Below are positions 1 to 5,967 of a stretch of 64,000 nt of DNA, piece by piece; position 1 is the first letter of the stretch, and each line of letters starts with the position of its first letter. Position numbers and translations under genes: made by a program. Below the pieces are notes generated by a model. That model made no database searches. It saw only the letters and a list, made by a program, of their open reading frames with translations, and was not told the origin of the DNA. Source of the stretch: Eledone cirrhosa (lineage: Eukaryota); the NCBI GenBank assembly GCA_964016885.1, contig OZ024740.1:252278001-252342000 (forward strand). Direction: 5' to 3'.

Positions 1-98
1 ACCACGTAAGATTGACAGCTCGTAACAACGGAGCAATAAATATCTGTTGGTATAATGTTTGTGTTAGTAACGAATAGATTAGATAGACAGACAGATGG

Positions 99-101
<3 letters not shown>

Positions 102-163
<62 letters not shown>
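102..163. repeat. (AG)n microsatellite, about 31 units
   Basis: Perfect AG dinucleotide run read directly from the sequence. Confidence 0.98.
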
Positions 164-167
<4 letters not shown>

Positions 168-195
168 AGTGAAGAAGTGATATAAAGAAAGAATG

Positions 196-304
196 AATCC
201 CGGTACTGGATTGGTACTTTTTTAAATTCAGAGCGCAGAGAGCCCGAACGAATATTGCTAAGTACTCAATCCTACGTTCTAACAACTCAGCCAATTCGCT
301 GCCT
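196..304 (-). mobile_element. Internally deleted, decayed tRNA-derived SINE fragment (same family as 1519-1730 and 4585-4796)
   Basis: ATCCCGGTACTGGATTGGTACTTT...ATTCAGAGCGCAGAGAGCCCG...ACGTTCTAACAACTCAGCCAATTC aligns by eye with GACCCCAGTACATTACTGGTGCTTT...ACTCAAAACGTAAAGGGCCG...ACGCTCTAACGATACTGCCAATCC at 4646-4796; the middle part is missing. Confidence 0.55.
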
Positions 305-531
305 TTTGGTAGACAAATAGTTCACTACGTTAGAAATACATCTCCTCACAAAAGATATAAATAATATTTTAGGGGGCAGATGGACTATTGAAGAGAGAAT
401 TAGGAATCTGGGGTAAGTGACGCAACTGGAACAACATATATTCCATACTATGAACTCAAGATTACTTTGATGTAATTTGTTTCTTAAATACAACAATCTC
501 CGGTTTATTAAAGCCCTATATACGTCGAGAG

Positions 532-806
<275 letters not shown>

Positions 807-948
807 ATGCAGTTAAAATCTATTTGACATTGACAGTTATAATGATTCTTAATGACTATCTTTCTAGCCGTAAAATTTCCGTTGTTACCAACTTACACAG
901 ACATTGATAACATTTACTTTAAACTTTTTGTTGTCGTTATTGTGTTTA

Positions 949-1114
949 ACACACACACACACATATATATATACACACACACACATACGCACACTCACAC
1001 ACACACATATATACATATATATACACACACATACGTACACTCACACACACACACACATACATATATACACACACACACATACGCACACTCACACATACAC
1101 ACACACACACACAC

Positions 1115-1158
<44 letters not shown>

Positions 1159-1178
1159 TTGTGTGCGTCTGTGTATGT

Positions 1179-1255
<77 letters not shown>

Positions 1256-1274
1256 TGCGTGTGTGTGTATGTAT
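949..1274. repeat. Compound (CA)n/(TA)n/(GT)n microsatellite
   Basis: CA-rich left arm (949-1116), (TA)n centre (about 1124-1155), GT-rich right arm (1161-1274). Explains the HT/YI/CV-repeat ORFs. Confidence 0.97.
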
Positions 1275-1518
1275 CATTGATATCTTACGTCATTTTTTTT
1301 ACACTTATTCATGCTGTTGATATTTTCAAAAGCTTTTCTCTTCCTTATTTTCTTTAATTCATTTTCTTCCGTCTCCAACTGCTGATTCCATTATACATAT
1401 ATGCTGCCTCGATGTTAAGCTTTCTTTCCTGCTATTAACTCAAACACTTATTAAGATTCCACTGCTATTTAAACTAAACTTACAATATTTGCTACAAATA
1501 TCATAAACTTAAGAATTT

Positions 1519-1730
1519 TTTCTGAAATACACACAATACCAGTAACATTGCAGGGAGGTGGAGTGGGGGGGAATCAATTAAATTGACCACAGTACTTCAT
1601 TGATACCTTTTAAAATTGACCTCAGAAGAATGAAAAGCAAAGTTGACCTCGGTGGAACTTGAAACTAAAATTTCAAGAGCCGAGATATGCTGCAATGTAT
1701 TTCTCCAACGCTCTAACGATTCATCAACCT
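1519..1730 (-). mobile_element. Decayed tRNA-derived SINE copy
   Basis: Colinear with 4585-4796: TTAAATTGACCACAGTAC vs TTAAATTGACCCCAGTAC, ATGAAAAGCAAAGTTGAC vs ATGAAAGGCAAAGCTAAC, ACGCTCTAACGAT in both. Confidence 0.75.
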
Positions 1731-1823
1731 TCATAGACTTAAATAAAGTTCTTAACCAACTACAACAGAACTAGATTCATCTTTATAGTTATGATATATT
1801 TCAACTTCCCATATATATATACA

Positions 1824-1826
<3 letters not shown>

Positions 1827-1886
<60 letters not shown>
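1827..1886. repeat. (AT)n microsatellite, about 30 units, left flank of the PLE remnant
   Basis: Perfect AT run; a shorter AT run lies at 1811-1821. Confidence 0.98.
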
Positions 1887-1889
<3 letters not shown>

Positions 1890-2727
1890 ACCTAAAATGG
1901 GATATAATAGCAGCTGCCCCACCATATCCCACGGACAGGAATTTTGTAAATTGTGTAATATGGAATTATTTTGTATTATGAAATCCAAAAATATTTTATT
2001 AAATAACAGAATAGAGCGATCGTTATACTGTAACCATCACTTAAAATCTACATTTTCATATTACAAACACTACCAGGATTGAACGCCTGTCTCCATCTCC
2101 GTTTGATTGTCAAAATACATATTAGCATTCTCTATTAGTCTTAATTCTATCAACTCTTCTATTCTTTACCATTTAATATAAACTGCTATAGATAAAATGA
2201 GATTTCTTAATTCAATTCCCTAATGCATATACCAGCAGGCTACCAGCATTGTTGTTATTCAGTAGCAGTGAAAATCTCCCTCTTCCTTAATTGACACTTT
2301 ATAATTAATACTACTACACCAAACAACCAGCCCTGTCCATTGTTCAATTGGTCAAGTATAGATTAAAATAGGCACTCCCAAAAATTCTTATTTAGATAAA
2401 ATAAACCATATACTCATTGTATTCTCATTAGAAACCCTTTATATACTTGTTTACCAGTAAATTGAATTGCCATCTGTCATATACTATCCCCTCTCTTCTT
2501 CCTTTATTACAACTAATATAAATACTTCAATTTTTCTGATTTTTTCCAATTTATCCAATATCTCTGAAGAAGTGACAACTGATTATACATTTGCTATCGA
2601 ATACTTGCTAACATTATATGATTGCGCAAGCAGCGATACATAGGTATTCCGTTTGATACGGAAACATATGTCAATACCTAATAAATTCCTTTTTTAAAAT
2701 AAAGCACTTTCATTTTATATTCATCTT

Positions 2728-2730
<3 letters not shown>
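1886..2730 (+). mobile_element. 5'-truncated Penelope-like retroelement (PLE) remnant: end of the endonuclease ORF plus about 650 bp of 3' UTR/pLTR, bounded by (AT)n on both sides
   Basis: Protein motif at 1889-2082 (next feature), AATAAA signals near 2680-2703, a hammerhead-like 3' half at 2661-2680, and sharp boundaries at (AT)30 and (TA)15. Confidence 0.7.
1889..2082 (+). pseudogene. C-terminal fragment of a PLE GIY-YIG endonuclease domain, one frameshift
   Basis: Frame from 1889 gives NLKWDIIAAAPPY; after a 1-nt deletion near 1928 the 1897..2082 frame continues HGQEFCKLCNMELFCIMKSKNILLNNRIERSLYCNHH...*. The joined pattern W.I.....Y......CxLC..E...I......LN.R.E....CxH matches my recollection of the C-terminus of PLE (Naiad-type) GIY-YIG domains. 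No search was run. Confidence 0.72.

Positions 2731-2760
<30 letters not shown>
2731..2760. repeat. (TA)15 microsatellite separating the PLE remnant and the retrozyme-like element
   Basis: Perfect TA run. Confidence 0.98.
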
Positions 2761-2764
<4 letters not shown>

Positions 2765-2999
2765 CAAATAACGAAACGAAATTAAATTTCGTTTCGTTTG
2801 TAACTCACTTTTGTATGACTGACGCTTAAACAATTATGTTAAAAATGTACATCCACATATGTATACTGAAATACTAGTATGCATATGAATACACACACGT
2901 ATACATATGTAGATGTACCGAGTTTTTCACTGGTCACTTTACTGTGAGTGTCCAGCTATTCTGTATGTAAACACAGACAAACCGGTTTTTAGAGTCATA
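2758..2999. repeat. Direct repeat copy 1 (242 bp)
   Basis: Near-identical to 3222-3465; visible differences are TATGTT/TAAGTT, ACACAG/ACACACAG and TTTTTAG/TTTTGAG. Confidence 0.97.
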
Positions 3000-3050
3000 C
3001 TGGTTTTTGAGGAAACACCTTTCCTCTATTCTCCAGAAAGCCAGACAAGG

Positions 3051-3095
3051 AATATTGAACTAGTTTCGATGTTGTTACATCTCATCAGCAATATT
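3051..3095 (-). ncRNA. Type I hammerhead ribozyme (minimal metazoan type, palindromic short stem III)
   Basis: Minus strand reads AAUAUUG-CUGAUGA-GAUGU(AACA)ACAUC-GAAA-CUAG-UU^CAAUAUU: 7-bp stem I, invariant CUGAUGA and GAAA core, 5-bp stem II, palindromic ACUAGU stem III, and a GUU cleavage triplet. Predicted cut between 3058 and 3057. Confidence 0.92.
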
Positions 3096-3221
3096 TACCT
3101 ATCTTCCGGCCTTTCTAGAGAATCGTAAAAGCACATATCGTTATATGCTTTTTCTATGAAAATTAGTAGTGGGCAGACTAATTTGCATAGAGCGTGAGTA
3201 CGTACCGGTTCAACGGAGACG

Positions 3222-3465
3222 ATAAAAACAAATAACGAAACGAAATTAAATTTCGTTTCGTTTGTAACTCACTTTTGTATGACTGACGCTTAAACAATTA
3301 AGTTAAAAATGTACATCCACATATGTATACTGAAATACTAGTATGCATATGAATACACACACGTATACATATGTAGATGTACCGAGTTTTTCACTGGTCA
3401 CTTTACTGTGAGTGTCCAGCTATTCTGTATGTAAACACACAGACAAACCGGTTTTGAGAGTCATA
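3222..3465. repeat. Direct repeat copy 2 (244 bp)
   Basis: Near-identical to 2758-2999. Confidence 0.97.
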
Positions 3466-3517
3466 TATATATAATAGAGAAACGAAAATCAATTACTGAA
3501 TTTCAGAGACTTATCAA

Positions 3518-3753
3518 ACCAGAGTTTATCCCAGTTTCATGTGACATTAAGCAACTGAGGACATAAGGTTCTTCCCTGGAGAGGATGCTGTCTATTGCAA
3601 GATGAATGCTCAAGGGCTGTTGATATAAATTTCATTCCAGCTGAGTGGCTGAGGCAACGTGAAATGTAGTGCCTTGTTCAGGAAGACAACGCTTCATAGA
3701 TCGAAACCTGGCCTTATGATCATGTGACTAACACCATAAGACAACACACCTTC
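3518..3753 (-). mobile_element. Decayed tRNA-derived SINE, probably MetaSINE-type
   Basis: TATCCCAGTTTCATGTGACATTAAGCAACTGAGG...CCCTGGAGAGGATGCTGTCTATTGCAAG resembles the recalled Meta-domain consensus; GCAACGTGAAATGTAGTGCCTTGTTCAGGAAGACAACGC...GATCGAAACC gives a minus-strand B-box-like GGTTTCGATC. Confidence 0.55.
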
Positions 3754-3887
3754 TTAACCAACTATAGAATATTTGGATTCCTCTTTATAGTTAAAATATA
3801 TAATACAACTCTGAGTAACCAGAGACAACTTGCTAACCGATTTTTCTTTTAGATCGCGGCTTCATTTATTAGTATATTATTGGTATC

Positions 3888-4222
3888 AGACACAAGCATG
3901 ACTGGGAGTTTGAGAAGTTCGCTTCAGAATCATGAAGTCCCAGGTTCGATCACATTGTATAACATCTTGGGCGTCAATGTTGGGTGTCTTTACCAAAGTG
4001 TCAGGTCGACTCAACTCTTACCAGTGAAAATGTGTAGACAGAAACTGTGTTGAAACCAGTCAGTTGGATTGTACATGCAATTCAAATGTCCATCCCTGTT
4101 AAGTATTGTGCCACGCTTATTTAATTTGGTAACTGCGTTAAGGCTACACGTGTCTGTGGGATACACAGACATTTAATCTCGAGTTGGCCCAGTTGAAACC
4201 ATCAAAGGATCCACCATCGTTG
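3888..4222 (+). mobile_element. Decayed tRNA-derived SINE
   Basis: B-box-like GGTTCGATCAC at about 3942-3952, followed by CATCTTGGGC...GTGTCTTT...GGTCGAC...GTAGACAGAAACTG, similar to recalled octopus SINE bodies. Confidence 0.55.
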
Positions 4223-4584
4223 GTATCCTTCAATCTTCATTTGCAAATATTTTTTTCCCTTTAGAAAACTGAGATCTATCTTGACTTAGTTAAAAAAATA
4301 ACAGAGCAAGCTAAATGGTAAACAAGTTGAGAAGAGCAGAAACCTTGTTAGTAAATATACAATAAAGAGATGAGGAACATATATGATGGATGGCAATACA
4401 TGGAACACACCGAAGAACTGATATCATTTACAGTAAAAGGTCAACTAATTTAGCAGTGATGCTGGTGTTTGTTTTTCTCACAGAAAGTACAATAGAACCT
4501 TAGTCCTCTCCATCCCGTCGACTGGAACCACGAGGTGGACGTGGGTAGGAGTAGGGTGGCAGTCTTCAGACGAAAGGGTTAATA

Positions 4585-4796
4585 ATGATTTCTGATTTAG
4601 GCACAAGACCACCAATTTTTAGGGGAGGGTAAAGTTGTTTAAATTGACCCCAGTACATTACTGGTGCTTTATTTTATCGAACCCGTCGGGATGAAAGGCA
4701 AAGCTAACATTGGTGGGATATGAACTCAAAACGTAAAGGGCCGTAAATCTATGTTGCAAAGCATGGTGTCTGACGCTCTAACGATACTGCCAATCC
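4585..4796 (-). mobile_element. tRNA-derived SINE, best-preserved copy of the family in this window
   Basis: Minus strand begins TGGCAGTATCGTTAGAGCGTCA (A-box-like), then GAGTTCATATCCC (B-box-like), then TTTGCCTTTCATCCCGACGGGTTCGATAAAATAAAGCACCAGT, resembling the Nin/Deu-type central domain. Two further copies occur in the window. Confidence 0.8.
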
Positions 4797-4865
4797 AAGA
4801 ATTAATAATATAGACACACACTCACATGAATAAAATAGTAAGTTAACTCGGAGTCTTAGTTATAC

Positions 4866-4950
4866 AAAATGACTGGATGGTCAAAGTCAGAATATCTTTG
4901 ATCATAGGTCTGTTGAATTAGGACCGATTCAATAAAAGCAGCTTGGTAAA
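4866..4950 (+). mobile_element. Possible 3' tail fragment of a SINE abutting the satellite
   Basis: TGACTGGATGGTCAAAGTCAGAATATCTTTGATCATAGGTCTGTTGAATTAGGACCGA resembles a recalled octopus repeat tail that ends in TAAAC(AAC)n. Recognition from memory only. Confidence 0.35.
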
Positions 4951-5967
4951 CACTACCAAAACCATTAACATCACCAACACCGCCAACACTACCAACACCA
5001 CTAACAGCACTAACACTAACAACGCTACCAACACCATTAAAACCACCAACACCAACACCAACACCAACAAGACCACTAACGCTACCAACACTAACAACAC
5101 GAGCAACACCACCAACGCTAACAACACAACCAACAACACCAACACTACCAATTCCATTAAAACCATCAACTCTACAAACACCACCAGCACCAACATCACT
5201 AACACCACAAACATCACCAATGCCACCAATACTACCAACGCCCCCAACACTAGCACCACAGAGACCACCAACCCCACCAATGCTACTAACGCCACCAACA
5301 CCATTAACAACACTATCACCTCCAACACCACCAATACCACCAACACCACCACCACTACCAACACTACAATATCACCAACACCACCAACACCACAACATTA
5401 CCAAGGCTAGCAACACCATTAACACCACTATTATCACCAACACCACAAAAAACACCAGCAGCACTCACATCACCAACACCACCAACACCACAATCATCAC
5501 CAACACCCCCAACACCACCAACACCACTCAAACCAAGAACACTACAACACCACCAACACCACTCACATCACCAACACCACCAACACCACTCACATCACCA
5601 ACACCGCTCACATCACGAACACCACCAATAACACCAACAGCACTCACACCACCAACACTACAACACCACCTACACCACTCACACCACCAACACCACCAAC
5701 ACCACCAACACCACTCACACCACCAACACTACAACACAACCAACACCACTCACAGCACCAACACCACCAACACCACCAACACCACTCACACCACCAACGC
5801 TACCAACACCACCAACACCACTCACACCACCAACACTACCAAAACCACTCACACCGCCAACGCTACCAACACAACCAACACCACCAACACCACTCACACC
5901 ACCAACGCTACCAACACCACCAACACCACTCACACCACCAAAACTACCAACGCCACTCACACCGCCA

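Follow-up and report, generated by a model that had tools for sequence, protein, structure and literature searches.

The closest described counterparts of the locus analysed here are found among C-terminal EN+ PLEs and among retrozymes. In the PLEs of the Hydra clade, a CxxC and a CxH around a conserved E and N have been put forward as potential marks of the clade (Craig 2021, PMC8557442), and in Figs S2 and S7 of that paper only the rows of Hydra elements show this signature by eye. Of the Hydra families listed there, 26 of 27 prefer (TA)n as their target, and for octopus both Hydra and Naiad families are listed with this preference. Metazoan non-LTR retrozymes are portrayed in the accessible portions of Cervera and de la Pena 2020 (PMC7229834) and Li et al. 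2026 (bioRxiv 10.64898/2026.07.22.740005) as short non-coding units with a GC content below 50%, a type I hammerhead, a strongly self-paired predicted circle and a head-to-tail layout of more than unit length; the former gives unit lengths of 150-450 bp and the latter of 51-972 bp. In plant LTR retrozymes, as summarized in the accessible part of PMC7761336, direct repeats enclose a unique middle and each LTR carries a type III hammerhead; a PBS, a PPT and 4-bp TSDs are also present. A PLE origin of animal retrozymes has already been argued in print, and their mobiliser and circular template have been argued, in the accounts available to us, from shared ribozymes, co-occurrence and pLTR homology.

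The window, i.e. the whole stretch of 64,000 nt that was analysed, has its sole non-satellite part at positions 1-4948, the remainder (4949-64000) being one C/A-rich tandem array. In character the DNA resembles a microsatellite-rich animal genome. The first-pass annotation had described two elements lying tail-to-tail between TA runs, and both the layout and the orientation were confirmed: the order is (AT)30, an endonuclease remnant on the + strand, (TA)15, a hammerhead element on the - strand and (AT)5, with the 3' ends of both elements meeting at (TA)15. The features are as follows.

1827-1886: (AT)30, left flank, adjoining the point at which the PLE remnant is truncated on its 5' side
1886-2082, + strand: about 65 codons from the C-terminus of the GIY-YIG endonuclease of a Hydra-clade PLE, interrupted by a single -1 frameshift
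2083-2730, + strand: 648 nt that probably form the 3' UTR of the PLE remnant; unstructured, with a T-rich end
2641-2680, + strand: probable dead type I hammerhead of the PLE, with an 8-bp stem I, GAAA and a palindromic stem III
2731-2760: (TA)15, common to the 3' ends of both elements; its last 3 nt, ATA, also match the unit of the ribozyme element
2761-2996, - strand: downstream copy of the duplicated part (3' end of the ribozyme element), holding a 20-bp and a 13-bp hairpin
2770-2798, - strand: 13-bp hairpin followed by U-rich 9 nt at the 3' end of the ribozyme element, also present at 3234-3262
2997-3224, - strand: single-copy middle of the 464-nt unit, containing the hammerhead
3035-3106, - strand: intact canonical type I hammerhead, matched by Rfam HH9 and by our own descriptor
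3225-3462, - strand: duplicated part, upstream copy, at the 5' end of the insertion; it differs from the other copy by two substitutions and one 2-nt indel
3463-3473: (AT)5A, right flank; its first 3 nt, ATA, also match the unit of the ribozyme element

The coding part of the PLE remnant is distributed over two frames by the frameshift, which is located between 1928 and 1944. Frame 1886-1981 yields the F-N-L-K-W..I...PY part, whose F-N-L-K-W begins at the last base of (AT)30 and aligns by eye with F-N-I-R-W of Hydra-1_Obim of Octopus bimaculoides, and frame 1891-2082 yields CxLCxxE-x11-LNxRxE-x4-CxH, followed by the stop codon at 2080-2082. The codons of Y and C are separated by 17 nt as opposed to the six residues of the Hydra rows in Craig 2021 (PY-x6-C), which implies that one base was lost in the remnant. 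The CxxC-E-N-CxH motif, taken from Fig. S7 of Craig 2021, has a single match in positions 1-4948 of the window and was found in none of 500 dinucleotide shuffles at each of three strictness levels. A phmmer search with 1903-2079 against 1.84 billion proteins gave three matches with E <= 0.001. One of these (P0003, E 2.8e-4) has by eye a PLE-type GIY-YIG domain with GIY-YIG-like strands and a Hydra-type CxCx5C linker, and it aligns to both frames of the remnant (51% identity over 41 aa and 41% over 17 aa); its single-sequence fold was unusable (pLDDT 31). The other two (P0001 and P0002), a tandem-repeat protein and a large repetitive protein, appeared unrelated by eye and were dropped. Pfam and PHROGs had no match for the remnant, sequence searches of Pfam, PHROGs and PDB with the remnant or P0003 gave nothing useful, and word-based homologue searches found no homologue of the remnant and none, or only the query itself, for P0003.

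The PLE identity proposed earlier for this fragment is supported by features of the Hydra clade, the comparison with published Hydra proteins being one by eye. The flanks agree with this assignment, since Hydra elements such as Hydra-1_Obim have the same (TA)n flanks and TA runs stand at both ends of the remnant, the 3' boundary being itself partly defined by the run. In comparison to full Hydra elements only the last ~65 codons are kept; the RT part (the RWK and DKT motifs and the CxCx5C linker, with no CCHH in the Hydra clade) is absent from the window. Judged by its sequence, the remnant is a dead, 5'-truncated copy of a Hydra-clade PLE. It does not belong to the Hydra-1_Obim family itself, from whose published representative it differs by scattered identity (by eye), a different hammerhead and a UTR that is about three times longer.

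The remnant probably extends past the coding end at 2082 (+ strand) to 2730. The fold of this putative UTR is no better than that of shuffled sequence (z +2.7 and +0.5 for two stretches), and its 648 nt exceed the roughly 200 nt of Hydra-1_Obim (by eye), so that it may hold other DNA. An intact hammerhead core is not present in 2083-2730. At 2641-2680, a GUC site 58 nt before (TA)15 is accompanied by the stem and GAAA elements listed above, with the CUGANGA half of the core missing; in four Hydra-clade families for which the distance was taken by hand from published material, the sense-strand hammerhead lies about 35-115 nt from the 3' end. A descriptor of this arrangement, written after the site had been seen, was matched in 1 of 2000 shuffles with stem I at 8 bp and in 10 of 2000 at 7 bp, and within 1-4948 it finds 2641-2680 and the intact ribozyme and nowhere else. 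The MFE structure favours another hairpin and the centroid keeps part of stem I. We consider this site to be probably the decayed hammerhead of the PLE itself, and rate it no higher because of the competing hairpin and the length of the UTR. If this reading is right, 1886-2730 would be a single insertion, truncated at its 5' end and decayed, that is bordered by TA at either end. Upstream of the site, at 2560-2640, fainter hammerhead-like words are visible by eye (CUGAAGA with a 3-bp hairpin, and another 3-bp hairpin whose loop is GCAA), which may be additional decayed copies.

The ribozyme element (2761-3462) comprises 702 nt or 1.51 copies of a 464-nt unit, which is defined by a direct repeat of period 464 (2758-2999 versus 3222-3465, 98.4% identity over 244 columns). 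The hammerhead announced for this element by the first-pass annotation is present, but as one copy only, outside the duplicated 240 bp. Stem I (3095-3089/3057-3051) has 7 bp plus an extension, stem II has 5 bp and stem III is short and palindromic; the core consists of CUGAUGA (3088-3082) and GAAA (3067-3064), and cleavage is predicted after GUU, between 3058 and 3057. The Rfam HH9 match has an E-value of 7.5e-7, but its 36.5 bits stay under the gathering score of 52, and at gathering level Rfam gave no match; the full descriptor was found in none of 2000 shuffles. Matches to miRNA and other weak Rfam matches were taken as chance matches to hairpins. As 55 nt alone the hammerhead folds no better than its shuffles (z -1.4), with the MFE structure pairing the core with loop III, and as 76 nt the z-score is -3.1. 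The one-pair helix III and palindromic tetraloop are shared with axolotl HHR_Amex1, for which weak cleavage of the monomer (6% in 1 h) and efficient cleavage of the dimer are reported in the accessible part of PMC7229834. HHR_Amex1 differs in sequence and host, and the element here has no second ribozyme in cis.

The 464-nt unit has a GC content of 35.6%, and its longest stop-free frames are 71 aa (antisense) and 57 aa; the former is an ATG frame at 2913-3128 (+ strand), antisense to the hammerhead, and probably due to chance. A PLE coding trace was not found in the element. Folded as a circle, the unit is predicted to form a multi-hairpin structure of -154.6 kcal/mol (z -8.9, 40 shuffles), and as a linear molecule it reaches z -10.2, whereas the z-scores of all five control stretches, of which two come from the PLE UTR, range from -1.2 to +2.7. 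Searches for related loci in bacterial, archaeal and phage collections (GTDB genomes, phages) retrieved no second copy of either family. By its hammerhead, its non-coding low-GC unit and its self-pairing, the element is, at the level of sequence and predicted fold, of the non-LTR retrozyme type, with a unit above the older length range and inside the newer one. An active retrozyme is a tandem array with at least two hammerhead-bearing units. With 1.5 units and one hammerhead, the element is not 'active' in the sense given in the accessible text of Li et al. 2026, and we hence file it as a dispersed, non-propagating retrozyme-type copy. As a unit-length circle cannot be cut out with one hammerhead only, the copy would be a dead end. 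Direct repeats around a unique middle with a hammerhead are also found in plant LTR retrozymes; unlike these, the element has a single type I ribozyme outside the repeats, which places it outside the plant type.

A PLE partial tandem would have the same layout of two repeat copies around a single-copy middle. In the main rival explanation, the - strand element belongs to another PLE family, itself autonomous, of which it is the 3' end (pLTR), and it arrived as a 5'-truncated partial tandem with neither a circle nor a helper in trans. PLE insertions are typically described as such truncated partial tandems with hammerheads in the pLTR, 10 of 25 Hydra families have GUU as their cut site (our hand count in File S2 of Craig 2021, PMC8557442), and 21 of the 22 Repbase elements matched by Xenopus retrozyme families are PLEs according to the accessible text of bioRxiv 10.64898/2026.07.22.740005, so that the two categories grade into each other. 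The element here nevertheless lacks a PLE coding trace, its hammerhead is not included in the duplication, self-pairing is far stronger in the whole unit than in the UTR of the neighbouring PLE, and microhomology is present at both ends. We consider this explanation rather doubtful on balance, in the knowledge that a single copy cannot separate a partial tandem from a cDNA of a circle. It could also be asked whether the 1.5-mer is what recombination or assembly collapse left of a longer tandem array. Retrozymes often form arrays, and with copies 98% alike both processes are possible; the 59-kb satellite is resolved in the same window, which suggests long reads, and we regard such an origin as very unlikely. 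It would leave the reading of the target site unchanged.

The ends of the ribozyme element are set by the limits of the direct repeat and are hence independent of the TA runs, yet both fall exactly on such runs, for which the local run density gives a rough chance of 2-3e-5. At both ends ATA (3 nt) belongs to the run as well as to the unit; an overlap of at least 3 nt at a random point and phase of the unit is expected in 3.6% of cases for one end and in 0.13% (~0.0013) for both. Neither end coincides with the site of ribozyme cleavage. The choice of these tests was made with the locus already in view, and TA runs can grow from ATA seeds. The ends and overlaps together fit reverse transcription primed at a (TA)n nick and continuing for more than one round of a retrozyme RNA, be it circular or multimeric. 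For non-LTR retrozymes, the accessible portions of PMC7229834 and bioRxiv 10.64898/2026.07.22.740005 describe no (TA)n flanks with such ATA overlaps. Could the adjacency be incidental, the runs having grown after insertion or any element being bound to land beside TA here? The region is microsatellite-rich, with seven TA runs of at least four units in 4948 nt, and ATA at both ends could seed slippage. Against this stand the exact coincidence of two independently defined ends with runs and the documented (TA)n preference of Hydra elements, and we judge a merely incidental adjacency to be improbable.

The first-pass annotation had attributed both insertions to a TA-targeting machinery and had read the locus as a snapshot in which an autonomous element and its parasite share a target site. 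The targeting part is favoured by the Hydra-like remnant, the (TA)n preference of Hydra and the ends of the ribozyme element on TA runs; the helper part is not supported. The PLE copy, 5'-truncated to ~65 codons and frameshifted, is not autonomous, and being dead it cannot have been the helper. Nor does it have any sequence in common with the ribozyme element: the whole-length local score of 56 lies below the shuffle mean of 60.5 and is reached by 209 of 300 shuffles. In the 3'-end comparison that had been proposed, here run on these two copies, the similarity of the last 25, 40, 60 and 100 nt was reached by 220, 229, 58 and 419 of 1000 shuffles, respectively, and that of the hammerhead regions by 78 of 1000. 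A retrozyme can be homologous to the pLTR of some PLE in its host genome; with the neighbouring remnant, the one PLE compared, such homology was not seen.

A stronger form of the relationship would be that the neighbouring Hydra family itself, rather than this copy, is the helper and that the pair reflects a link between helper and parasite. This overlaps with the history preferred below and differs from it by naming the helper. Both elements have the TA target in common, both end in U-rich tails and both carry, or probably carried, a type I hammerhead with a palindromic stem III. The lack of similarity over the whole elements, their 3' ends and their hammerheads speaks against it, as does the coexistence of several TA-preferring PLE families that is possible in one genome, and we consider it unlikely. 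Since Hydra and Naiad families both prefer (TA)n in octopus, the common target cannot name the helper.

The history that we prefer, with a probability of roughly 0.55, is that of two separate retrotranspositions into one reusable TA microsatellite, first of the PLE and then of the retrozyme by means of a PLE protein acting in trans. In the first event, which we infer to be the older one, a Hydra-clade PLE would have used its GIY-YIG endonuclease to nick (TA)n and would have copied no more than its last ~845 nt before stopping, which left TA on both sides; this copy would then have decayed. Later, a non-autonomous hammerhead retroelement with a 464-nt unit would have entered the TA run flanking the PLE in the opposite direction. 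A TA-cutting PLE protein provided in trans may have primed the cDNA at a 3-nt UAU match just past the 13-bp hairpin, which together with the U-rich 9 nt at 2770-2798 is a candidate start site of reverse transcription. The cDNA would have extended for 1.5 rounds of a circular RNA, or followed an uncut multimer instead, with a further UAU match as the point of joining. As each insertion leaves TA on either side, the target could be reused. The near-identical repeat copies of the retrozyme suggest a recent event and, as opposed to the frameshift and the lost ribozyme core of the PLE, that the retrozyme is younger; this order rests on the decay of the PLE copy, undated by any family consensus, and the whole history is read from one locus.

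cDNA of more than unit length from circles is a published model (accessible parts of PMC7761336 and PMC4209133). The only PLE assayed in vitro cleaved AT-rich DNA (PMC11167929), but in the same account it started copying at fixed internal positions that had no homology to the target, and it did not depend on hammerhead cleavage, which counts against a reading built on microhomology and a circle. A 6-bp helix across the unit junction (p 0.94) was considered as evidence of a circle and rejected as too short.

Neither half of the locus is of a new kind, and for the PLE half a description exists, Hydra elements being known in octopus. A paper on a cephalopod retrozyme or on a (TA)n-targeted retrozyme insertion was not found in the open-access literature; the supplements of PMC7229834 and of the preprint, Repbase and subscription papers lie outside this range and may hold such families. 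The main text of the Octopus vulgaris repeat annotation (PMC13282606), in its accessible part, does not mention ribozymes. Tentatively, and at well below even odds, the locus could exemplify a target-specific animal retrozyme, in which a 464-nt circular RNA borrows a TA-cutting PLE (Hydra or Naiad) and whose copies are permuted cDNAs of more than unit length bounded by UAU matches to (TA)n. If this were true, permuted copies across the genome would directly record reverse transcription round a circle, and the target would point to the clade of the helper, which in retrozyme papers is hypothesis only. The locus offers two countable signatures in this respect, (TA)n ends with ATA overlaps and a permuted length exceeding the unit. 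As a single site, it does no more than hint at PLEs as movers of hammerhead RNA elements.

Further repeats are present in the window. The satellite at 4949-64000 covers 59 kb and is C/A-rich with only 690 G; it has a 9-nt unit with 79% matches and higher-order periods of 6997, 11394 and 14461 nt, and its + strand frames stay open for up to ~3700 codons, probably through composition. A 51-nt direct repeat (80% identity) has one copy on either side of the composite locus, at 1749-1799 and 3751-3801, and is far more diverged than the repeats of the ribozyme element. Two copies of a 147-nt repeat with 68% identity lie at 1578-1720 and 4639-4785; these neighbouring repeats presumably resemble octopus SINEs. 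A tRNA gene was not found in positions 1-5000 of the window. At 949-1272, a near-palindrome of ~320 nt is composed of a (CA)-rich run, (TA)16 and a (TG)-rich run, with the TA run at its centre.
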